From a virus (Duplodnaviria > Heunggongvirae > Uroviricota > Caudoviricetes): a stretch of 48,141 nt of DNA. The position numbers and the translations under genes were made by a program. How positions within the stretch are numbered: position 1 is the first letter of the stretch; each line of letters starts with the position of its first letter. Shown piece after piece: positions 5,169 through 47,556 of this stretch. The DNA is taken from the IMG/VR virus record IMGVR_UViG_2675903658_000004. One strand, 5' to 3'. The notes beneath the pieces are model-generated. The model saw only the letters and a list, made by a program, of their open reading frames with translations, was not told the DNA's origin and did no database searches.

Positions 5169-5321
5169 TCAGTGGTTGTCATACCTGGTCTCTCTCATCT
5201 GCTTCTGCTTTCGCCACCATCATTTCCAGCTTTTGTGAAAGGGATGTGGCTAACGTATGAAATTCTTTGAACCGCCCCGGGAATCCTGGAGACTAAACTT
5301 CCTGAGAAAGAGGTAAACAGG

Positions 5322-5648
5322 ATGACTAAAAATACTCGTTTTTCCCCCGAAGTCCGTCAACGGGCAGTCCGTATGGTTCTGGAAAGTCAGAGCGAATATG
5401 ACTCACAATGGGCGACAATTTGTTCCATTGCTCCAAAGATTGGCTGTACGCCGGAGACTCTGCGTGTCTGGGTTCGCCAGCATGAGCGGGATACCGGGGG
5501 CGGTGATGGAGGGCTCACCACCGCTGAACGTCAGCGTCTGAAAGAGCTGGAACGTGAAAATCGTGAACTGCGCTGCAGTAACGATATCCTTCGCCAGGCT
5601 TCCGCTTATTTTGCGAAGGCGGAGTTCGACCGCCTCTGGAAAAAATGA
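5322..5648 (+). CDS. IS629 OrfA (HTH transposase subunit)
   Basis: 108-aa ORF with HTH and leucine-zipper-like region; ends in an A-run where orfB overlaps in the -1 frame. Confidence 0.9.
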
Positions 5649-6535
5649 TGCCACTGCTGGATAAGCTGCGTGAGCAGTACGGGGTCGGACCGCTATGCAG
5701 CGAACTGCATATTGCCCCGTCAACGTATTACCACTGTCAGCAACAGCGACATCATCCGGATAAACGCAGTGCCCGTGCGCAGCGCGATGACTGGCTGAAG
5801 AAAGAGATACAGCGCGTATACGATGAAAATCACAAGGTATACGGTGTGCGTAAAGTCTGGCGTCAGTTGTTACGGGAAGGTATCAGAGTGGCCAGATGCA
5901 CTGTGGCACGTCTCATGGCGGTTATGGGACTTGCCGGTGTTCTCCGGGGTAAAAAGGTCCGTACGACCATCAGCCGGAAAGCCGTTGCCGCAGGCGACCG
6001 CGTAAACCGTCAGTTCGTGGCAGAACGACCTGACCAGCTGTGGGTGGCTGATTTTACTTACGTCAGCACATGGCGGGGCTTCGTCTATGTGGCGTTCATC
6101 ATTGATGTGTTTGCCGGATACATCGTGGGGTGGCGGGTCTCATCGTCCATGGAAACGACATTCGTGCTGGATGCACTGGAGCAGGCGTTATGGGCCCGTC
6201 GACCGTCCGGCACGGTCCATCACAGTGATAAAGGTTCTCAGTATGTATCGCTGGCCTACACACAGCGGCTTAAGGAAGCCGGATTACTGGCATCAACAGG
6301 AAGTACAGGCGACTCGTATGACAACGCGATGGCGGAGAGCATCAATGGTCTTTACAAAGCGGAGGTAATACACCGTAAGAGCTGGAAAAACCGTGCAGAA
6401 GTGGAACTGGCCACACTCACGTGGGTGGACTGGTATAACAATCGACGATTGCTGGAAAGGCTGGGCCATACTCCTCCGGCAGAAGCAGAAAAAGCTTATT
6501 ATGCTTCCATCGGAAACGATGATCTGGCAGCCTGA
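5645..6535 (+). CDS. IS629 OrfB (DDE integrase-core transposase)
   Basis: 296-aa ORF with an rve/DDE core; -1 frame relative to orfA. Confidence 0.9.
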
Positions 6536-6655
6536 GTTCACAGATAAAACACTCTCCAGGAAACCCGGGGCGGTTCACTTCGTCTGTTTCTACTGGTATT
6601 GGCACAAACCTGACTCCAATTTGAGCAAGGCTATGTGCCATCTCAATACTCGTTC

Positions 6656-8818: not shown

Positions 8819-8951
8819 TTTTTGGGACTCCTGGCTGATTAAGTATGTCGATAAGGCGTTTCCATCCGTCACGTAATTTACGGGTGATTCGTTCAAGTAA
8901 AGATTCGGAAGGGCAGCCAGCAACAGGCCACCCTGCAATGGCATATTGCAT
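8787..8951 (-). CDS. cIII: CIII (FtsH protease inhibitor)
   Basis: Not in the ORF track (under 60 aa); hand translation from the ATG at 8951 gives [54 protein letters not shown], matching lambda CIII; overlaps the kil start. Confidence 0.85.
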   Translation of the reverse strand: MQYAIAGWPVAGCPSESLLERITRKLRDGWKRLIDILNQPGVPKNGSNNYGYPD

Positions 8952-9023
8952 GGTGTGCTCCTTATTTATACATAACGAAAAACGCCTCGAGTGAAGCGTA
9001 ATTGGTATGCGGTAACGCCGCGC

Positions 9024-9574: not shown

Positions 9575-9775
9575 TCAGGCAGCTTTGTTGTTCTGTTTAC
9601 CAAGTTCTCTGGCAATCATTGCCGTCGTTCGTATTGCCCATTTATCGACATATTTCCCATCTTCCATTACAGGAAACATTTCTTCAGGCTTAACCATGCA
9701 TTCCGATTGCAGCTTGCATCCATTGCATCGTTTGAATTGTCCACACCATTGATTTGTATCAATAGTCGTAGTCAT
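9575..9775 (-). CDS. ral: Ral (restriction alleviation protein)
   Basis: 66-aa MTTTIDTNQWCGQFKRCNGCKLQSECMV... matching lambda Ral. Confidence 0.9.
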   Translation of the reverse strand: MTTTIDTNQWCGQFKRCNGCKLQSECMVKPEEMFPVMEDGKYVDKWAIRTTAMIARELGKQNNKAA

Positions 9776-10586: not shown

Positions 10587-10859
10587 TCATCTCGCCGTCA
10601 GTTGTTTTGATTTCCGGTAGCCTGCCGCGTAAAGAGCTACGTTCGGAAGACAAGTTGAACCTTCATATTTTCTGGTCAACGTTGTCAGAGTTATCACTTC
10701 TGCTCTCATTGCTGGTTTGAGCTTGCATTGCAAGACCACTCGTGAAGGGGTTGGCCTGTGTAGCTTGTCGGAGCTGATCGCCTCCTGACTTTGCAGATTT
10801 GCGCGACGAGCTCTACGGCGAGAAGCTGCGGTGCCTTTAAATTCTGTTTTTCTGGACAT
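10587..10859 (-). CDS. N: N-like transcription antitermination protein (non-lambda specificity type)
   Basis: Arg-rich N-terminus (TAASRRRARRANLQ) and a C-terminus ...CLPNVALYAAGYRKSKQLTAR recalled from H-19B/933W-type N; ATG at 10859 preceded by GGAGG; ORF track start at 10931 is probably too far upstream. Confidence 0.7.
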   Translation of the reverse strand: MSRKTEFKGTAASRRRARRANLQSQEAISSDKLHRPTPSRVVLQCKLKPAMRAEVITLTTLTRKYEGSTCLPNVALYAAGYRKSKQLTAR

Positions 10860-11295: not shown

Positions 11296-12048
11296 TTATG
11301 CTGCAAGTCTCTTAACCCAAGTCTCTCTTTTGGAGAATGGTAGAACTTGGCTTGATTCATGGAAGAGTAAGGAGAGTTGTTGCATTTGATCACCAATTGC
11401 TTCGCTGTCTATAACAACAAATCTGTTGTTATACTCCTCACTTGAAGCTTTAAGATCAATTAGTTTCCCAAGCAATGAGTAAGCACTATTCCAGCTTCCT
11501 CCGTGTTTCACGCTTGATGTAAAAACGTATTTAGGTATGTCGGTTTTTATTGTTACAGGGACGGTAATTTGATGTCCACTCAAGCCATATACGTTTTCAC
11601 GAAGAGAAAGTGCGTCTCTAAGCTCTGTGTGATATAGATAATCAATAACCATACTTTCAAACTTTTCAGCTTGAACTGGCTGATACCAGTCTAACGACAA
11701 AGTTGATGCGAGTATACCAGCTCTAATTATGTTCGATGTAATCGCACCGACATCCTTTTCTGTTGCCCAAGCAATGATTTCTCCTCGAGCATTGAGTTCT
11801 GCGCCTTCTTTAAGCAGTAATTGTCGTATCTCATCAAGTCGTTTTTTGGTAAGCGAGATCCCTCTTGCCTCCATATTCATTAAGGCATCGCATCTGTCAC
11901 TAACTAAATACCTACCATTGACTTCACGGATAAAGGCACCGACATGCTCTCCATCATCACAGTAAGTGAATGGACTGATAATTCTCAAGGTCTTGCCTAT
12001 TGGATGGCATTCGAAACCTAGTTGTGAGATCACTGTTGAGCACATCAT
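11296..12048 (-). CDS. hypothetical protein, rex-slot gene 2 (250 aa), candidate defence/exclusion component
   Basis: ATG at 12048 overlaps the upstream stop in an ATGA arrangement; AT-rich; no recognisable motif; occupies the rexB position. Confidence 0.6.
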   Translation of the reverse strand: MMCSTVISQLGFECHPIGKTLRIISPFTYCDDGEHVGAFIREVNGRYLVSDRCDALMNMEARGISLTKKRLDEIRQLLLKEGAELNARGEIIAWATEKDVGAITSNIIRAGILASTLSLDWYQPVQAEKFESMVIDYLYHTELRDALSLRENVYGLSGHQITVPVTIKTDIPKYVFTSSVKHGGSWNSAYSLLGKLIDLKASSEEYNNRFVVIDSEAIGDQMQQLSLLFHESSQVLPFSKRETWVKRLAA

Positions 12049-12602
12049 ATTCCAAACCCCATTTGCCCCGACTCATCTTCAAGCGGTAAAGGTATTCTCC
12101 CAGAGTAAGTTATGTTCAGATGTTTACAGAAGTAATTCCAATACCCTACCAGGTCATCTGGGTTTATGTCATCTTCGATTGGAAACGCTATTCTATCACT
12201 ATAGTATCCAGCTTCTTCATAGTATACATGGTAGTGAGCACCGTAAATGATATCTTGGTACTTCGGATGATCGACCTTGTAACTATTCGTGTGTTTGTCA
12301 AAGTGATAGGTATCTACCGCGAAAACCCTCTTGTTATGATAGAAAGCAATAATATTTATTTTAGGGTAAGAAATCGGGTCATCAGGTTCTGAATCCTGAT
12401 CTGGTTTCCATTTCAGTTCAAACTTTAGCCCTTGTATAGGTATACAATCCTCATCCAAGGGGATGATATGGGCTTGTAGCCACATATCAGAGCGACTTGG
12501 TTTCTGTTTCCATTTAACGCCAGAAAAGTTAACTATTTTTTTACAATAAAGTACTTTATCAACTTCTACTTGGCTTGGCTGATAATCATCTATTTTTGCC
12601 AA
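12045..12602 (-). CDS. hypothetical protein, rex-slot gene 1 (185 aa), candidate defence/exclusion component
   Basis: Begins 39 nt downstream of the cI stop, same strand; annotated start is TTG (non-ATG), so the true start is uncertain; Tyr/His/Asp-rich, no TM segment seen. Confidence 0.55.
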   Translation of the reverse strand: MAKIDDYQPSQVEVDKVLYCKKIVNFSGVKWKQKPSRSDMWLQAHIIPLDEDCIPIQGLKFELKWKPDQDSEPDDPISYPKINIIAFYHNKRVFAVDTYHFDKHTNSYKVDHPKYQDIIYGAHYHVYYEEAGYYSDRIAFPIEDDINPDDLVGYWNYFCKHLNITYSGRIPLPLEDESGQMGFGI

Positions 12603-14580: not shown

Positions 14581-14727
14581 GAATTCTGGCGAATCCTCTG
14601 ACCAGCCAGAAAACGACCTTTCTGTGGTGAAACCGGATGCTGCAATTCAGAGCGGCAGCAAGTGGGGGACAGCAGAAGACCTGACTGAACCGCCCCGGGT
14701 TTCCTGGAGAGTGTTTTATCTGTGAAC

Positions 14728-15618
14728 TCAGGCTGCCAGATCATCGTTTCCGATGGAAGCATAATAAGCTTTTTCTGCTTCTGCCGGAGGAGTATGGCCC
14801 AGCCTTTCCAGCAATCGTCGATTGTTATACCAGTCCACCCACGTGAGTGTGGCCAGTTCCACTTCTGCACGGTTTTTCCAGCTCTTACGGTGTATTACCT
14901 CCGCTTTGTAAAGACCATTGATGCTCTCCGCCATCGCGTTGTCATACGAGTCGCCTGTACTTCCTGTTGATGCCAGTAATCCGGCTTCCTTAAGCCGCTG
15001 TGTGTAGGCCAGCGATACATACTGAGAACCTTTATCACTGTGATGGACCGTGCCGGACGGTCGACGGGCCCATAACGCCTGCTCCAGTGCATCCAGCACG
15101 AATGTCGTTTCCATGGACGATGAGACCCGCCACCCCACGATGTATCCGGCAAACACATCAATGATGAACGCCACATAGACGAAGCCCCGCCATGTGCTGA
15201 CGTAAGTAAAATCAGCCACCCACAGCTGGTCAGGTCGTTCTGCCACGAACTGACGGTTTACGCGGTCGCCTGCGGCAACGGCTTTCCGGCTGATGGTCGT
15301 ACGGACCTTTTTACCCCGGAGAACACCGGCAAGTCCCATAACCGCCATGAGACGTGCCACAGTGCATCTGGCCACTCTGATACCTTCCCGTAACAACTGA
15401 CGCCAGACTTTACGCACACCGTATACCTTGTGATTTTCATCGTATACGCGCTGTATCTCTTTCTTCAGCCAGTCATCGCGCTGCGCACGGGCACTGCGTT
15501 TATCCGGATGATGTCGCTGTTGCTGACAGTGGTAATACGTTGACGGGGCAATATGCAGTTCGCTGCATAGCGGTCCGACCCCGTACTGCTCACGCAGCTT
15601 ATCCAGCAGTGGCATCAT
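14728..15618 (-). CDS. IS629 OrfB transposase
   Basis: Protein identical to copy 1 OrfB. Confidence 0.9.
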
Positions 15619-15941
15619 TTTTTCCAGAGGCGGTCGAACTCCGCCTTCGCAAAATAAGCGGAAGCCTGGCGAAGGATATCGTTACTGCAGCGCAGTTCAC
15701 GATTTTCACGTTCCAGCTCTTTCAGACGCTGACGTTCAGCGGTGGTGAGCCCTCCATCACCGCCCCCGGTATCCCGCTCATGCTGGCGAACCCAGACACG
15801 CAGAGTCTCCGGCGTACAGCCAATCTTTGGAGCAATGGAACAAATTGTCGCCCATTGTGAGTCATATTCGCTCTGACTTTCCAGAACCATACGGACTGCC
15901 CGTTGACGGACTTCGGGGGAAAAACGAGTATTTTTAGTCAT
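15615..15941 (-). CDS. IS629 OrfA
   Basis: Protein identical to copy 1 OrfA. Confidence 0.9.
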
Positions 15942-16307
15942 CCTGTTTACCTCTTTCTCAGGAAGTTTAGTCTCCAGGATTCCCGGGGCGGTTCAGACCG
16001 CCGCAGAATGGATGTTTGACATGGTGAAGACCATCGCGCCATCAGCCAGAAAACCGAATTTTGCAGGGTGGGCTAACGATATCCGCCTGATGCGTGAACG
16101 TGACGGACGTAACCATCGCGACATGTGTGTACTGTTCCGCTGGGCATGCCAGGACAACTTCTGGTCCGGTAACGTGCTGAGCCCGGCCAAACTCCGCGAC
16201 AAGTGGACCCAGCTCGAAATCAACCGTAACAAGCAACAGGCAGGTGTGACAGCCTGCAAACCAAAACTCGACCTGACAAACACTGACTGGATTTACGGGG
16301 TGGATTT

Positions 16308-17296: not shown

Positions 17297-17369
17297 CCAT
17301 CTACATCACTGAGCTAATAACAGGCCTGCAGGTAATCGCAGGCCTTTTTATTTGGGGGAGAGGGAAGTC

Positions 17370-17810
17370 ATGAAAAAACTAACCTTTGAAATTCGATCTC
17401 CGGCACATCAGCAAAACGCTATTCACGCAGTACAGCAAATCCTTCCAGACCCAACCAAACCAATCGTAGTAACCATTCAGGAACGCAACCGCAGCTTAGA
17501 CCAAAACAGGAAGCTATGGGCCTGCTTAGGTGACGTCTCTCGTCAGGTTGAATGGCATGGTCGCTGGCTGGATGCAGAAAGCTGGAAGTGTGTGTTTACC
17601 GCAGCATTAAAGCAGCAGGATGTTGTTCCTAACCTTGCCGGGAATGGCTTTGTGGTAATAGGCCAGTCAACCAGCAGGATGCGTGTAAGCGAATTTGCGG
17701 AGCTATTAGAGCTTATACAGGCATTCGGTACAGAGCGTGGCGTTAAGTGGTCAGACGAAGCGCGACTGGCTCTCGAATGGAAAGCGCGATGGGGAGATCG
17801 GGCTGCATGA
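17370..17810 (+). CDS. ninB: NinB (Orf family recombination mediator)
   Basis: MKKLTFEIRSPAHQQNAIHAVQQILPDP... matches lambda NinB; ATG at 17370. Confidence 0.9.
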   Translation: MKKLTFEIRSPAHQQNAIHAVQQILPDPTKPIVVTIQERNRSLDQNRKLWACLGDVSRQVEWHGRWLDAESWKCVFTAALKQQDVVPNLAGNGFVVIGQSTSRMRVSEFAELLELIQAFGTERGVKWSDEARLALEWKARWGDRAA

Positions 17811-18334
17811 CTATCAAATCAAATACGCCAGCACACGACAAGGACTGCTGGCAAACGCCGCTTTGGCTTTTTGATGCACTGGATATTGAGTTTGGATTCT
17901 GGCTGGATTCGGCAGCGAGCGACAAAAATGCTCTGTGCGCTCACTGGCTAACTGAGGACGACGACGCGCTCAATTCTGAGTGGGTAAGCCACGGTGCAAT
18001 CTGGAATAACCCACCGTACAGCAATATCAGGCCGTGGGTGGAAAAAGCCGCTGAGCAGTGTATACAACAGCGACAGACGGTAGTGATGCTTGTGCCAGAG
18101 GATATGTCTGTCGGATGGTTCAGCAAGGCTCTGGAGAGTGTTGACGAAGTTCGTATTATCACTGATGGACGGATTAATTTTATCGAACCATCGACAGGGC
18201 TGGAGAAGAAGGGAAACAGCAAAGGCTCCATGCTGCTGATTTGGCGACCGTTCATCAGTCCTCGACGGATGTTTACTACCGTATCCAAAGCGGCATTGAT
18301 GGCGATCGGGCAGGGCGTCAGGAGGGCTGCATGA
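17807..18334 (+). CDS. phage DNA N6-adenine methyltransferase
   Basis: NPPY motif ([10 protein letters not shown]) typical of N6-adenine methyltransferases; ATGA overlap with the ninB stop. Confidence 0.75.
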
Positions 18335-18507
18335 GACGACAGCGACGAAGCATCACCGACATAATCTGCGAAAACTGCAAATACCTTCCAACGAAACGCT
18401 CCAGAAATAAACGCAAGCTAATCCCAAAAGAATCTGACGTAAAAACCTTCAATTACACAGCCCACCTGTGGGATATCCGGTGGCTAAGATATCGTGCGAG
18501 GAAATGA
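18331..18507 (+). CDS. ninE: NinE
   Basis: [29 protein letters not shown]... matches lambda NinE; internal start of ORF 18241..18507. Confidence 0.8.
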
Positions 18508-18851: not shown

Positions 18852-19038
18852 CCCATCTCAATCCCTTCAATACCTGAAAGAAAGCATAGAGCGGGCTTCA
18901 ATGTGCACAGAGTGGATTCTATCTAGGTTTAGCGCATACAGAAGATTGCCGGTAAAGGGCATGCCAAGCAAGTCGATGCTGCATATGCAAAAGAATGCGC
19001 GCTGGAAGGTATGGCGAGAACACAGGTTATGTGGCTGA
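18844..19038 (+). CDS. NinF-like small protein (divergent)
   Basis: N-terminus [10 protein letters not shown] resembles recalled lambda NinF, remainder diverges. Confidence 0.4.
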
Positions 19039-19057
19039 AAGAGGGGGTTATTAAGGC

Positions 19058-40644: not shown

Positions 40645-43600
40645 ATGGGTAAAGGCAGCAGTAAGGGGCATACCCCGCGCGAAGCGAAGGACAACCTGAA
40701 ATCATCCCAGATGCTGAGCGTGATAGACGCCATCAGCGAAGGGCCGGTTGAAGGTCCGGTGGATGGATTAAAAAGCGTGCTGCTGAACAGTACGCCGGTG
40801 CTGGACAGTGAGGGGAATACCAATATATTCGGCGTCACGGTGGTGTTCCGGGCCGGTGAGCAGGAGCAGACACCGCCGGAGGGATTTGAATCCTCCGGCT
40901 CCGAGACGGTGCTCGGTACAGAAGTGAAATATGACACGCCGATCACCCGGACCATCACGTCGGCAAACATTGACCGTCTGCGTTTTACTTTCGGCGTGCA
41001 GGCACTGGTGGAAACCACCTCAAAGGGGGACAGGAATCCATCGGAAGTCCGCCTGCTGGTTCAGATTCAACGTAACGGTGGCTGGGTGACGGAAAAAGAC
41101 ATCACCATTAAGGGCAAAACCACGTCGCAGTATCTGGCCTCGGTGGTGGTGGATAACCTGCCGCCGCGCCCGTTTAATATCCGGATGCGCAGGATGACGC
41201 CGGACAGCACCACAGACCAGTTGCAGAACAAAACGCTCTGGTCGTCATACACCGAAATCATCGATGTGAAACAGTGCTACCCGAACACGGCACTGGTCGG
41301 CGTACAGGTGGACTCGGAGCAGTTCGGCAGCCAGCAGGTGAGCCGTAATTATCATCTTCGCGGGCGCATTCTGCAGGTGCCGTCGAACTATAACCCGCAG
41401 ACGCGGCAATACAGCGGTATCTGGGACGGAACGTTTAAGCCAGCATACAGCAACAACATGGCCTGGTGTCTGTGGGATATGCTGACCCATCCGCGCTACG
41501 GCATGGGGAAACGTCTTGGTGCGGCAGATGTGGATAAATGGGCGCTGTATGTCATCGGCCAGAATTGCGACCAGTCAGTGCCGGACGGCTTTGGCGGCAC
41601 GGAGCCGCGCATCACCTGTAATGCGTACCTGACCACACAGCGCAAGGCGTGGGATGTGCTCAGTGATTTTTGCTCGGCGATGCGCTGTATGCCGGTATGG
41701 AACGGGCAGACGCTGACATTCGTGCAGGACCGACCGTCGGATAAGGTGTGGACCTATAACCGCAGTAATGTGGTGATGCCGGATGATGGCGCGCCGTTCC
41801 GCTACAGCTTCAGCGCCCTGAAAGACCGCCATAATGCCGTTGAGGTGAACTGGATTGACCCGGATAACGGCTGGGAGACGGCGACAGAGCTTGTGGAGGA
41901 CACGCAGGCCATTGCCCGTTACGGTCGTAACGTCACGAAGATGGATGCCTTTGGCTGTACCAGCCGGGGGCAGGCACACCGCGCCGGGCTGTGGCTGATT
42001 AAAACGGAGCTGCTGGAAACGCAGACCGTGGACTTCAGCGTGGGTGCAGAAGGGCTTCGCCATGTACCGGGCGATGTCATTGAAATCTGTGATGATGACT
42101 ATGCGGGGATCAGCATCGGCGGGCGCGTGCTGGCGGTGAACAACCAGACGCGGACACTGACGCTCGACCGTGAAATCACGCTGCCATCCTCCGGCACCAC
42201 GCTGATAAGCCTGGCTGACGGACAGGGGAATCCGGTCAGCGTGGAGGTCCAGTCCGTCACCGACGGCGTGAAGGTAAAAGTGAGCCGTGTTCCTGACGGC
42301 GTTGCAGAATACAGCGTGTGGGGGCTGAAGTTGCCAACGTTGCGCCAGCGCCTGTTCCGCTGTGTGAGTATCCGTGAGAACGATGACGGCACGTATGCCA
42401 TCACTGCCGTGCAGCATGTACCGGAAAAAGAGGCCATCGTGGATAACGGGGCGCACTTTGACGGCGACCAGAGCGGCACGGTGAATGGTGTCACGCCGCC
42501 AGCGGTGCAGCACCTGACTGCCGAAGTCACCGCAGACAGCGGGGAATATCAGGTGCTGGCGCGCTGGGACACGCCGAAGGTGGTGAAGGGGGTGAGCTTT
42601 ATGCTTCGCCTGACCGTGGCAGCGGATGACGGCAGTGAGCGGCTGGTCAGCACGGCCCGGACGACGGAAACCACATACCGCTTCAGGCAACTGGCGCTGG
42701 GGAACTACAGGCTGACAGTCCGGGCGGTAAATGCGTGGGGGCAGCAGGGCGATCCGGCATCGGTATCGTTCCGGATTGCCGCACCGGCAGCGCCGTCGCA
42801 GATTGAGCTGACACCGGGGTATTTTCAGATAACCGCCACGCCGCATCTTGCGGTTTATGATCCGACGGTACAGTTTGAGTTCTGGTTCTCGGAAAAGCGG
42901 ATTGCGGATATCAGGCAGGTTGAAACCACAGCACGCTATCTTGGCACGGCGCTGTACTGGATAGCCGCCAGTATCAATATCAAACCGGGCCATGATTATT
43001 ATTTTTACATCCGCAGTGTGAACACCGTTGGCAAATCGGCATTTGTGGAGGCTGTTGGCCAGCCGAGTGATGATGCATCCGGCTATCTGAATTTTTTCAA
43101 AGGAGAGATAGGGAAAACCCATCTGGCTCAGGAGTTGTGGACGCAGATTGATAACGGTCAGCTTGCGCCTGACCTGGCTGAAATCAGGACGTCCATTACG
43201 GGTGTCAGCAATGAAATCACGCAGACCGTCAATAAGAAACTGGAAGACCAGAGTGCAGCGATCCAGCAGATACAGAAGGTTCAGGTTGATACAAATAATA
43301 ACCTGAACAGCATGTGGGCTGTGAAGCTGCAGCAGATGCAGGACGGACGCCTTTATATCGCGGGTATTGGTGCCGGTGTTGAGAATACTCCTGACGGTAT
43401 GCAGAGTCAGGTGCTGCTGGCGGCGGACAGGATTGCGATGATTAATCCTGCGAATGGCAACACAAAGCCGATGTTTGTTGGGCAGGGCGATCAGATATTC
43501 ATGAACGAAGTGTTCCTGAAATATCTGACGGCTCCCACCATTACCAGCGGTGGCAATCCCCCAACGTTTTCACTGACACCTGATGGTCGACTTTCTGCGA

Positions 43601-44127
43601 AAAATGCGGATATCAGCGGTAACGTGAACGCGAACTCCGGGACGCTCAACAACGTCACGATTAATCAGAACTGTCGGATTCTGGGAAAACTGTCAGCTAA
43701 CCAGATTGAAGGTGATATTGTCAAAACGGTGGGAAAAGCCTTTCCGAGAAATGGCAGTTATGCCAGCGGTACAATAACGGTCACTGTGTACGATGACCAG
43801 GCTTTTGACCGTCAGATAGTAGTCCCCCCCGTTCTGTTTCGTGGGGGTAAGCATGAAAACTTCAACAGCAACAACCAACAGTCATACTGGTATTCAACCT
43901 GTAAGCTGCAGGTACTGAAGAACGGACAGGAAATCTTTCAGCAACCCGCGACGGATGTCAGCAGGGTATTTTCATCAGTCATTGATATGCCTGCCGGACA
44001 CGGCCATGTCACCCTGACTTTCAATGTTTCTTCATATGGTGCTAATAACTGGACGCCAACGACCAGTATCAGCGACCTTCTTGTTGTTGTGATGAAGAAA
44101 TCTACAGCCGGTATCAGTATCAGTTGA
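40645..44127 (+). CDS. J: central tail fiber / host specificity protein J
   Basis: 1160 aa, lambda gpJ-like over most of its length. Confidence 0.95.
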
Positions 44128-44146
44128 ATTTTATAACCCAGATACG

Positions 44147-44170
44147 GGCGCCAGAAATGGCGCCTTTTTT
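44147..44170 (+). terminator. rho-independent terminator after J
   Basis: GGCGCC / GGCGCC perfect 6-bp stem with loop AGAAAT, followed by TTTTTT. Confidence 0.55.
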
Positions 44171-44179
44171 ATTTGTGGA

Positions 44180-46189
44180 GTGAATATGGCAGTACAGATT
44201 TCAGGCGTGCTGAAAGACGGTGCAGGAAAACCGATACAGAACTGCACCATTCAGCTCAAAGCAAAACGTAACAGCACCACGGTTGTGGTGAACACGGTGG
44301 CCTCAGAAAATCCGGATGAAGCCGGACGTTACAGCATGGATGTCGAGTATGGCCAGTACAGCGTTATCCTGCTGGTTGAAGGTTTTCCGCCTTCACATGC
44401 CGGGGCCATCACCGTGTATGAGGATTCTAAGCCGGGGACATTGAATGATTTTCTGGGCGCTGCAACAGAAGATGATGTTCGTCCGGAGGCACTGTATCGT
44501 TTTGAAAAGATGGTGGAAGAGGTGGCACGCAACGCTGAAGCCGCCTCTCAGAGCGCAGCGGCAGCAAAGAAATCAGAAACAGCAGCGGCATCGTCCAGGA
44601 ATGCGGCGAAAACATCAGAGACGAATGCAGGTAACAGCGCGAAAGCGGCAGCTTCTTCAAAAACAGCCGCACAAAACGCAGCAACAGCGGCAGAACGTTC
44701 AGAGACAAATGCCCGTGCGTCAGAAGAAGCCTCCGCAGACAGTGAAGAGGCTTCCCGCCGTAATGCAGAGTCAGCCGCTGAAAATGCCGGAGTCGCCACC
44801 ACAAAAGCGCGGGAGGCCGCAGCAGACGCAACAAAGGCCGGGCAGAAAAAGGATGAGGCTCTGTCGGCAGCGACACGGGCTGAAAAGGCGGCAGACCGCG
44901 CAGAAGTCGCAGCGGAAGTGACTGCAGAGCCCTATGCGAATATAGTGCCGCCGCTGCCTGATGTGTGGATACCGTTTAACGATTCACTGGATATGATTGC
45001 GGGTTTTTCTCCGGGCTATAAAAAAATAGCTATTGGTGACGATGTGGTTCAGGTCGCCAGTGATAAACAGGTTAATTTCAGTCGCGCATCAACGGCAACA
45101 TATATCAACAAATCTGGCGAACTGAAAACGGCGGAAATTAATGAGCCGCGATTTGAGTGTGATGGCCTGCTTATTGAGGGACAAAGAACGAACTACATGC
45201 TCAATTCGGAAAGTCCAGCCAGCTGGGGGAAGTCATCAAACATGGATGTGCCCGAAACCGGGACAGATAGTTTTGGTTTTACTTATGGAAAGTTTGTCTG
45301 CAACGATTCTCTGGTTGGGCAAACTTCGGCTATTAATATGGCATCAATTGCTGCAACAAAGTCAGTTGATGTCTCAGGCGATAACAAGTACGTGACAACC
45401 TCATGCCGTTTTAAAACAGAACGACAGGTAAGGTTACGTATACGGTTTGATAAGTATGATGGTAGTGCAACAACTTTTCTTGGCGATGCGTACATTGATA
45501 CGCAAACGCTTGAAATTAATATGACAGGTGGGGCTGCCGGCAGAATTACGGCACGAGTCAGGAAGGATAAGACCACAGGCTGGATTTTTGCAGAGGCAAC
45601 GATTCAGGCAATTGATGGTGAGTTAAAAATAGGCTCTCAGATACAGTATTCTCCTGAGCGGGGTGGGGCAACAGTATCTGGTGACTATATTTATCTTGCC
45701 ACCCCACAAGTAGAGAATGGGCCGTGTGTATCATCATTTATTATTTCAGGAGGCAGCGCAACGACAAGAGCCAGTGATTTGGTTAGTATCCCCACCAGAA
45801 ATAATCTTTATAAGTTACCATTTACTTTTTTACTTGAGATTCATAAAAACTGGGATATTGCACCAAACGCCGCACCCCGCGTGTGGGATATAGCAGCAGC
45901 CAATACCGGGCAATCAGCAATTGCAGCAATCAACAGAGGTAGTGGTAAGTTATATATGAGTCTGTCAAACCCTTCAGGCTTGTATGTTAATAGCGCAGCG
46001 ACAGATGTATTTGCAGAGAAAACCACATTTGGATGTATTGCAAAAGCTGATGGTCACTTTCATGTGGTGACAAATGGTAAAGCGGTTAATGAAGTTTATT
46101 GTGAATATAATGGTGTGACCGCTGATAAAAATATCCGATTTGGAGGGCAGACGAATACTGGAGAACGACATCTGTTTGGCCATATTTGA
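44180..46189 (+). CDS. stf: side tail fiber protein (Stf-like N-terminus, distinct C-terminal domain); last 20 codons displaced by IS629 copy 3
   Basis: N-terminus MAVQISGVLKDGAGKPIQNCTIQLKAKRNSTTVVVNTV... matches lambda Stf; Ala/Ser-rich repeats; the ORF's stop TGA is the first three bases of the IS629 terminus. Confidence 0.85.
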   Translation: MNMAVQISGVLKDGAGKPIQNCTIQLKAKRNSTTVVVNTVASENPDEAGRYSMDVEYGQYSVILLVEGFPPSHAGAITVYEDSKPGTLNDFLGAATEDDVRPEALYRFEKMVEEVARNAEAASQSAAAAKKSETAAASSRNAAKTSETNAGNSAKAAASSKTAAQNAATAAERSETNARASEEASADSEEASRRNAESAAENAGVATTKAREAAADATKAGQKKDEALSAATRAEKAADRAEVAAEVTAEPYANIVPPLPDVWIPFNDSLDMIAGFSPGYKKIAIGDDVVQVASDKQVNFSRASTATYINKSGELKTAEINEPRFECDGLLIEGQRTNYMLNSESPASWGKSSNMDVPETGTDSFGFTYGKFVCNDSLVGQTSAINMASIAATKSVDVSGDNKYVTTSCRFKTERQVRLRIRFDKYDGSATTFLGDAYIDTQTLEINMTGGAAGRITARVRKDKTTGWIFAEATIQAIDGELKIGSQIQYSPERGGATVSGDYIYLATPQVENGPCVSSFIISGGSATTRASDLVSIPTRNNLYKLPFTFLLEIHKNWDIAPNAAPRVWDIAAANTGQSAIAAINRGSGKLYMSLSNPSGLYVNSAATDVFAEKTTFGCIAKADGHFHVVTNGKAVNEVYCEYNGVTADKNIRFGGQTNTGERHLFGHI

Positions 46190-46240
46190 ACCGCCCCGGG
46201 AATCCTGGAGACTAAACTTCCTGAGAAAGAGGTAAACAGG

Positions 46241-46567
46241 ATGACTAAAAATACTCGTTTTTCCCCCGAAGTCCGTCAACGGGCAGTCCGTATGGTTCTG
46301 GAAAGTCAGAGCGAATATGACTCACAATGGGCGACAATTTGTTCCATTGCTCCAAAGATTGGCTGTACGCCGGAGACTCTGCGTGTCTGGGTTCGCCAGC
46401 ATGAGCGGGATACCGGGGGCGGTGATGGAGGGCTCACCACCGCTGAACGTCAGCGTCTGAAAGAGCTGGAACGTGAAAATCGTGAACTGCGCTGCAGTAA
46501 CGATATCCTTCGCCAGGCTTCCGCTTATTTTGCGAAGGCGGAGTTCGACCGCCTCTGGAAAAAATGA
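46241..46567 (+). CDS. IS629 OrfA
   Basis: Protein identical to copy 1 OrfA. Confidence 0.9.
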
Positions 46568-47454
46568 TGCCACTGCTGGATAAGCTGCGTGAGCAGTACG
46601 GGGTCGGACCGCTATGCAGCGAACTGCATATTGCCCCGTCAACGTATTACCACTGTCAGCAACAGCGACATCATCCGGATAAACGCAGTGCCCGTGCGCA
46701 GCGCGATGACTGGCTGAAGAAAGAGATACAGCGCGTATACGATGAAAATCACAAGGTATACGGTGTGCGTAAAGTCTGGCGTCAGTTGTTACGGGAAGGT
46801 ATCAGAGTGGCCAGATGCACTGTGGCACGTCTCATGGCGGTTATGGGACTTGCCGGTGTTCTCCGGGGTAAAAAGGTCCGTACGACCATCAGCCGGAAAG
46901 CCGTTGCCGCAGGCGACCGCGTAAACCGTCAGTTCGTGGCAGAACGACCTGACCAGCTGTGGGTGGCTGATTTTACTTACGTCAGCACATGGCGGGGCTT
47001 CGTCTATGTGGCGTTCATCATTGATGTGTTTGCCGGATACATCGTGGGGTGGCGGGTCTCATCGTCCATGGAAACGACATTCGTGCTGGATGCACTGGAG
47101 CAGGCGTTATGGGCCCGTCGACCGTCCGGCACGGTCCATCACAGTGATAAAGGTTCTCAGTATGTATCGCTGGCCTACACACAGCGGCTTAAGGAAGCCG
47201 GATTACTGGCATCAACAGGAAGTACAGGCGACTCGTATGACAACGCGATGGCGGAGAGCATCAATGGTCTTTACAAAGCGGAGGTAATACACCGTAAGAG
47301 CTGGAAAAACCGTGCAGAAGTGGAACTGGCCACACTCACGTGGGTGGACTGGTATAACAATCGACGATTGCTGGAAAGGCTGGGCCATACTCCTCCGGCA
47401 GAAGCAGAAAAAGCTTATTATGCTTCCATCGGAAACGATGATCTGGCAGCCTGA
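46564..47454 (+). CDS. IS629 OrfB transposase
   Basis: Protein identical to copy 1 OrfB. Confidence 0.9.
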
Positions 47455-47556
47455 GTTCACAGATAAAACACTCTCCAGGAAACCCGGGGCGGTTCATATT
47501 CGCAATTTCCGCATATGGCATAAAGAATTAAATGACAGGCAATTAAAAGAGGTCGT

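Follow-up and report, generated by a model that had tools for sequence, protein, structure and literature searches.

A phage Dam-family adenine methyltransferase, most likely directed at GATC, in the nin region of a decayed lambda-like prophage

The subject of this analysis is an intact open reading frame (ORF) in the nin region of a lambda-like prophage, carried on a 48,141-nucleotide stretch of DNA (IMG/VR record IMGVR_UViG_2675903658_000004, Caudoviricetes), the whole of which is referred to below as the window. The ORF probably encodes an active, S-adenosylmethionine (SAM)-dependent orphan N6-adenine methyltransferase (MTase) of the phage Dam family (PF05869/TIGR01712), an allele of M.EcoVT2Dam whose target is most likely GATC. 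As judged from the sequence and its relatives, this explanation as a whole is assigned a probability of about 0.85. A textbook accessory gene of lambdoid and Shiga toxin (Stx) phages, it is already known, as are its family, its place in the nin region and its likely target.

The family assignment is carried by matches to several profile collections. The MTase matched Pfam PF05869, 'DNA N-6-adenine-methyltransferase (Dam)', over profile positions 1-167 of 169 (E 3.7e-65; 219.1 bits, cut-off 28.1 bits), and the NCBIfam equivalog TIGR01712, 'phage N-6-adenine-methyltransferase', over positions 1-165 of 165 (265.6 bits, cut-off 97.05 bits). It also matched PHROG phrog_111, 'DNA methyltransferase' (E 8.3e-88), and the RefSeq entry for the identical protein, WP_000153286.1, carries the name 'phage N-6-adenine-methyltransferase'. 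In a large protein collection, the best 120 of 273 matches all belonged to PF05869, and most of those that had a name at their source bore that same name. An earlier note on this DNA, made from the letters alone, had proposed an N6-adenine methyltransferase on the strength of an NPPY motif. The Pfam, NCBIfam and PHROG matches bear this identity out, and the motif is present at residues 68-71 and kept on alignment, being invariant in 43 homologues as well as in T1 Dam and HP1 Dam. L33, D34 and A37 are invariant across the window MTase and the VT2, T1 and HP1 enzymes, and D34 also in the 43 homologues; by analogy with M.TaqI-type enzymes, this LDxAA element is the probable SAM-binding motif I. 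D13, T17 and P18 are likewise invariant across the window, VT2, T1 and HP1 enzymes, and the element that they belong to fits the N-terminal element described by Iyer et al. for M.EcoKI/M.TaqI-type enzymes (PMC4738411), an analogy from which a structural role may be proposed. The residues common to the MTase, T1 Dam and HP1 Dam are D13, T17-P18, L33-D34, A37, N68-P-P-Y71-S72, D99, S101, W104-F105, E114, R122, F125, T130-G131, N137 and K139. The marks of the classical Dam family (E. coli Dam, T4 Dam, DpnM), namely its Pfam match, a DPPY motif and an inserted recognition domain, were absent from the MTase; the protein is a functional analogue of host Dam, outside host Dam's family.

The nearest relative is M.EcoVT2Dam (orf32, NP_050531) of the Stx2 phage VT2-Sakai. 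Both proteins have 175 residues, of which 174 (99.4%) are identical, and the single difference, D51 here against A51 in VT2-Sakai, lies at an alignment position where homologues vary freely. M.EcoVT2Dam belongs to the same Pfam and NCBIfam families, and its gene likewise lies between ninB and ninE, overlapping each of them in an ATGA as here. Eight synonymous changes and one non-synonymous change separate the two alleles and give a ratio of non-synonymous to synonymous differences (pN/pS) of 0.035. On this sequence comparison, so low a ratio is the signature expected of a gene kept under selection, and together with the PF05869 match over the whole profile it argues that this is not a chance ORF. 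The same gene is found in phages 933W, Phi24B, HK97 and 434, and proteins that are 98-99% identical occur in 933W, 434 and Stx1/Stx2 phages. Phages ev207, ev017, PhiR57_1 and PhiR63_2 carry the stretch from ninB to ninE with 100% identity, and many 'Lambda_' isolates carry it with 98-99%. A tblastn search with the MTase found relatives in 2158 phage records, and of the 5426 complete E. coli genomes, 1566 (about 29%) had a copy of at least 95% identity, with up to five copies per genome.

The expected target follows from reports on these relatives. M.EcoVT2Dam is described as an orphan N6-methyladenine (m6A) MTase 'known to target 5'-GATC-3'' in a passage of PMC6602927 that cites Radlinska & Bujnicki 2001, and is listed among phage Dam-like enzymes (PMC7556043). 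T1 Dam has been described as GATC-modifying (PMC4996451), and HP1 Dam, from a Haemophilus phage, as a Dam-like enzyme (PMC7556043). PamA, an orphan of a S. aureus USA300 prophage, methylates GATC and makes DNA DpnI-sensitive, and the NPPY substitutions P65/P66 abolish this methylation (PMC12435837). A 141-residue protein of S. aureus phage Sushi (PF05869, E 4.3e-32; NPPY at residues 64-67, C-terminal Q141) fits the published account of PamA, the match being one by description. PF05869 is also named in work on oomycete 6mA (PMC6211444), which was left aside here, as the text concerned deals mainly with DAMT proteins, described as having an N6-adenineMlase domain. GATC methylation is a recurrent property of the PF05869 family, and this allele, by its sequence relationships, most likely methylates the adenine of GATC. 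Since this is also the target of host Dam, no new methylation motif would be expected upon expression in a dam+ host, even if the MTase is active.

A PDB sequence search with the MTase gave chance-level matches only (E 0.31 and 0.69), and no solved structure was detectable by sequence for PF05869. An AlphaFold2 model was built from 43 homologues, with a predicted local distance difference test score (pLDDT) of 89.9 and a predicted template modelling score (pTM) of 0.87. The model has the class I SAM-methyltransferase (Rossmann-like) fold and consists of a catalytic domain alone, of the M.TaqI/HsdM/PCIF1 type, without a separate DNA-recognition domain. Its top-ranked structural neighbours are N6-adenine methyltransferases: the comparison gave figures of 10.2 for PCIF1/CAPAM, 9.3 for M.BseCI, 9.2 for M.TaqI, 8.9 for MmeI, 8.8 for CamA and about 8 for Type I M subunits, followed by 7.8 for E. 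coli Dam, 7.2 for T4 Dam and 6.8 for DpnM. Foldseek also ranked PCIF1 first (E 3.9e-4) and returned METTL3-METTL14 at a probability of 0.08-0.15. This ranking agrees with the published M.EcoKI/M.TaqI-type grouping (Group 2 of Iyer et al.), where PCIF1 is placed along with the methyltransferase domain of DIRS1 (PMC4738411). If the M.TaqI-type enzymes are a guide, D34 of the LDxAA element would help to bind SAM, the flipped adenine would be held against N68-P-P-Y71 and the conserved aromatic F125 of a GR(I/L)xF element, and the conserved loops at residues 120-140 would probably read GATC. How a 175-residue enzyme with no recognition domain reads its site is a structural puzzle that is general to the family rather than specific to the window.

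The nearest solved fold to the model is that of eukaryotic PCIF1/CAPAM, an mRNA cap N6,2'-O-dimethyladenosine (m6Am) methyltransferase. A reading in which the MTase acts on RNA rather than DNA, like this enzyme or like the Stx-prophage rRNA enzyme M.EcoPA8orf6770P, is nevertheless very improbable. PF05869 members make DNA DpnI-sensitive in vivo (PMC12435837, PMC4996451), PCIF1 is only 14-16% identical to the MTase, and the eukaryotic clades of the M.EcoKI/M.TaqI-type group to which PCIF1 belongs have been traced to bacterial transfers (PMC4738411). The PA8 enzyme is of a different family: it is an MT-A70 protein, has DPPW as its motif and depends on the partner PNB-2 (PMC10810198); no MT-A70 Pfam match was obtained for the MTase, whose motif is NPPY, not DPPW. 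Direct equation of the MTase with this Stx-prophage 'DNA adenine methyltransferase' that methylates 16S rRNA (M.EcoPA8orf6770P/M.EcoGV, PMC10810198) was also considered and rejected, as that MT-A70/DPPW protein is encoded elsewhere in the phage.

The gene is set in a rightward operon in which, by Pfam, P and ren precede ninB, and NinX, RusA and the antiterminator Q follow ninE (Table 1). Its product has 175 residues; the 176 given in the earlier note include the stop codon. The overlap with ninB that the note had described is present as ATGA at 17807-17810, joining the MTase start to the ninB stop, and a second ATGA at 18331-18334 joins the MTase stop to the ninE start. These overlaps suggest, from the sequence, translational coupling with both neighbours; such overlaps are common to nin regions at large (PMC8022706), and the arrangement here is thus typical rather than special. 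The same order, ninB-MTase-ninE, is found in VT2-Sakai, 933W and many sequenced lambdoid phages. In alignment with lambda, ninB is about 99% identical as far as GGGCTGCATGA, after which homology is lost until codon 3 of ninE. The lambda segment replaced by the MTase gene is ninC and ninD (41081-42089 of NC_001416), just as the note had it. Its phrase 'inserted in the nin region' holds for the position, though the gene is better described as an alternative cassette of a mosaic nin region. The 11-mer GGGCTGCATGA occurs twice in the whole window, with both strands counted, once at each junction of the MTase, a distribution suggestive of a short common sequence where nin cassettes are swapped. It also closes ninB in lambda and in VT2-Sakai, though the rest of the VT2 ninB 3' end differs, and the downstream junction of VT2-Sakai has one mismatch to it (GGGCGGCATGA). 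The C-termini of NinB and the MTase are alike, both ending in RAA before the stop. A DUF1364 gene remnant without its N-terminus, located just upstream of rusA according to the RefSeq annotation of the matching E. coli KE51 sequence, is a further sign of cassette replacement in this nin region.

This gene context also bears on whether the MTase could be the modification half of a restriction-modification system with a nearby nuclease, for which the general association of methyltransferases with nucleases would speak. The chance of this is negligible. The neighbours all belong to nin-region families (NinB, NinE, NinX, RusA, Q), the MTase matches the PADLOC models PDLC03721 and PDLC03726, 'orphan methyltransferase', and the surroundings are likewise free of nuclease genes in VT2-Sakai and on the E. 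coli chromosome that matches the window. With no nuclease gene adjacent, the MTase is an orphan, which had also been the view of the earlier note.

The position of the gene points to the time at which it would be expressed. A terminator-like hairpin followed by a T run, found by a scan as AGGCCTGCAGGTAATCGCAGGCCT then TTTTATTT, lies between ren and ninB and is taken here to be the equivalent of lambda tR2, on the grounds of its position and of what is known of lambda. In combination with the N homologue of the window (PF25694, E 3.4e-32), this terminator leads to the expectation that the MTase belongs to the delayed-early rightward transcript; it would be made only after induction or infection, once N permits read-through. 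An Rfam scan gave no match within or near the MTase gene, and a promoter scan gave 7 hits against a shuffled mean of 11.4, hence no evidence of a private MTase promoter. In Phi24B, expression of the identical dam gene changes significantly upon prophage induction (PMC3342100). In the virion DNA of lambda and P22, Dam sites are undermethylated, and a host enzyme that does not keep pace with replication is a possible reason (PMC8022706). An MTase made at this stage would most likely make up for limiting host Dam, allowing phage DNA that replicates fast to be packaged fully GATC-methylated. Progeny so methylated would be shielded from any restriction enzyme that GATC methylation blocks, and the phage could grow in Dam-poor hosts. 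What phage Dam enzymes do is not yet well understood, and the benefit of a phage GATC methylase in a dam+ host is an unsettled question (PMC7556043), one that is not specific to the window.

Several considerations weigh against the proposed explanation, and they concern specificity, expression and the protective role. The GATC specificity of this allele is derived from its identity to M.EcoVT2Dam and from family reports, and the specificity of VT2 Dam itself was reportedly determined by restriction digests only. M.Btr190III, a 35%-identical relative and kin of T1 Dam, methylated GATC and many related sequences when cloned, and in view of such marked off-target activity upon overexpression strict GATC specificity is not guaranteed (PMC4996451). 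An MTase active on DNA with a relaxed or non-GATC specificity, acting on GATC and related sites or on adenines more widely, would protect against a wider set of restriction systems, and the predicted lack of a separate recognition domain would fit such behaviour. This possibility is nonetheless unlikely, given 99.4% identity to an enzyme reported as GATC-specific in the above passage of PMC6602927, and given that T1 Dam and PamA are also reported to be GATC methylases (PMC4996451, PMC12435837). Moreover, Dam-like enzymes are known to act off target, as an artefact, when they are overproduced (PMC10810198).

As regards expression, three 100% identical copies of an IS3-family insertion sequence (IS) are present in the window, presumably IS629-like by their length and transposase sequence. 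One of them splits a DUF1382 gene, another splits the replication gene O, between pR and the MTase, and the third abuts the end of a 669-residue ORF, which is probably a tail-fibre gene. The copy in gene O may block or reduce transcription reaching the MTase. The insertions render the prophage defective, and in the KE51 chromosome, to which window positions 8000-30000 match at a reported identity of 100.0%, the large terminase gene is annotated with an internal stop. In so crippled a prophage the MTase is probably a silent passenger here. That it is an unexpressed relic in this genome, its ORF intact owing to the recent decay of the prophage and of no use to this host or to any phage, is possible, if doubtful; the three identical IS copies, the terminase stop and the frequent silence of prophage methyltransferases in lysogens (PMC4996451) all point that way. 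On the other side, the ORF and all its motifs are intact, and the identical DNA in phages ev207, ev017 and PhiR57_1 indicates that this type of gene is functional. The MTase gene could still be picked up by an infecting phage, and donation of genes by defective prophages to infecting phages through recombination is described in PMC3945230. The relic reading also concerns activity in this host, not the identity of the gene. In the related strain E. coli ABU 83972, two pieces together account for 94% of the 22-kb query, and a 'replication protein' is annotated at the position of the KE51 IS, which suggests that this strain is free of the insertion. The oppositely oriented IS copies could mediate inversions.

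As regards the protective role, the window holds 130 GATC sites (2.7 per kb) against 224 expected from trinucleotide frequencies. Lambda, which lacks the MTase gene, presumably shows a similar depletion. The depletion in the window is therefore uninformative, and gives no genomic signature for a protective role. As further observations on short sites, a GATC-free stretch of 3.95 kb at 43489-47440 covers the tail-fibre region and one IS copy, and CTAG is strongly depleted in the window (7 against 24 expected).

Table 1. Positions of the methyltransferase gene, its motifs and junctions, and other features of the window.
Feature	Position	Strand	Remarks
Methyltransferase ORF (predicted orphan N6-adenine DNA MTase, allele of M.EcoVT2Dam)	17807..18334	+	intact, 528 nt, 175 codons and stop; ATG 17807-17809, TGA 18332-18334, read from sequence
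Conserved N-terminal element, D13-C-W-Q-T17-P18 codons	17843..17860	+	before first helix
Probable SAM-binding motif I, L33-D34-S35-A36-A37-S38 codons	17903..17920	+	end of strand 1; in model strand 31-36
Catalytic motif IV NPPY, N68-P69-P70-Y71 codons	18008..18019	+	follows model strand 64-68
Upstream cassette junction, 11-mer	17800..17810	+	ninB end, MTase ATG, ATGA overlap; similarity to lambda and VT2-Sakai switches here
Downstream cassette junction, same 11-mer	18324..18334	+	MTase end, ninE ATG, ATGA overlap; from sequence
ninB (orf)	17370..17810	+	upstream, same operon; PF05772 E 1.1e-54
ninE	18331..18507	+	downstream, same operon; PF05322 E 1.8e-41
Terminator-like hairpin and T run	17322..17353	+	scan match
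N homologue	10587..10856	-	
DUF1364 gene remnant	about 18972..19061	+	
IS3-family copy in DUF1382 gene	5268..6577	+	1310 bp; ALIL frameshift pseudoknot
IS3-family copy in gene O	14686..15995	-	1310 bp; ALIL frameshift pseudoknot
IS3-family copy at end of 669-residue ORF	46187..47496	+	1310 bp; ALIL frameshift pseudoknot
669-residue ORF, probable tail-fibre gene	44180..46189		
Ral	about 9575..9775	-	RefSeq annotation of the strain matching window 8000-30000
Two-gene module	11296..12599	-	between N and cI-like repressor
OmpC/NmpC-type porin gene	20215..21357	-	between Q and lysis genes
Iss lipoprotein gene	about 23088..23381	-	after lysis cassette
cIII thermoregulator RNA element	8906..8964	-	Rfam, 88.5 bits

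The remaining genes of the window are those of a lambda-like prophage: integrase, Ral, SieB, cI, cro, cII, O, P, ren, the nin genes and RusA, followed by a QuuD-type Q, a porin, lysis genes, Iss and lambda-type head and tail genes. The presence of Ral had been stated in the earlier note and is in line with the RefSeq annotation. The two-gene module, in the position of lambda rexAB, encodes a DUF1828 protein of 249 residues and a 184-residue protein with a weak DUF6978 match. The two proteins match the PADLOC candidate defence system entries PDC-M24B (E 7e-10) and PDC-M24A (E 5e-4), and the module may be a prophage-encoded anti-phage module. The porin gene, which lies on the strand opposite to its Q and lysis neighbours, and the Iss (increased serum survival, Bor-like) gene are typical lysogenic-conversion genes of prophages of extraintestinal pathogenic E. 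coli. The lambda cIII thermoregulator element indicates that the leftward operon is lambda-like here too.

Among known systems, the MTase is closest to M.EcoVT2Dam. Besides the differences within the gene, the surroundings differ: the upstream ninB 3' end of VT2-Sakai is unlike that of the window, and the lambda-like prophage that carries the gene here is decayed and non-Stx, its host being an extraintestinal E. coli. T1 Dam (M.EcoT1Dam) and HP1 Dam are both PF05869 members, 33% and 35% identical to the MTase, respectively, with identities in the alignments ranging over 31-35%, and share with it the NPPY, LDxAA, WxTP and GR(I/L)xF...GN.K elements. Compared with the MTase, T1 Dam is extended by 44 residues at the N-terminus and contains an insertion of 14 residues. 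Both enzymes are orphans in phage genomes, in contexts that differ from the nin region, namely a virulent siphovirus and a P2-like phage. PamA is about 34% identical and has a shorter C-terminus; its host has no Dam, and PamA there gives rise to a methylation pattern that is new to the cell and alters the expression of host genes (fnbA), an effect that would be masked in dam+ E. coli. That the present MTase, by relaxed specificity, a second substrate or low expression from the crippled prophage, might shift host methylation or gene expression in a PamA-like way is improbable; if true, an enzyme of relaxed specificity or with a second substrate would be more than a copy of host Dam function, and this in a uropathogenic-type host. 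E. coli Dam, T4 Dam and DpnM share with the MTase the presumed GATC target and the SAM-dependent N6-adenine chemistry, and Dam and T4 Dam are also orphans. In the M.TaqI/HsdM/PCIF1 group, the N-terminal helix, the coil around strand 3 and the NPPY motif after strand 4 fit the MTase model (PMC4738411), whereas the members of this group have 380-750 residues, with large recognition domains or separate specificity subunits, and are only 13-18% identical to the MTase.
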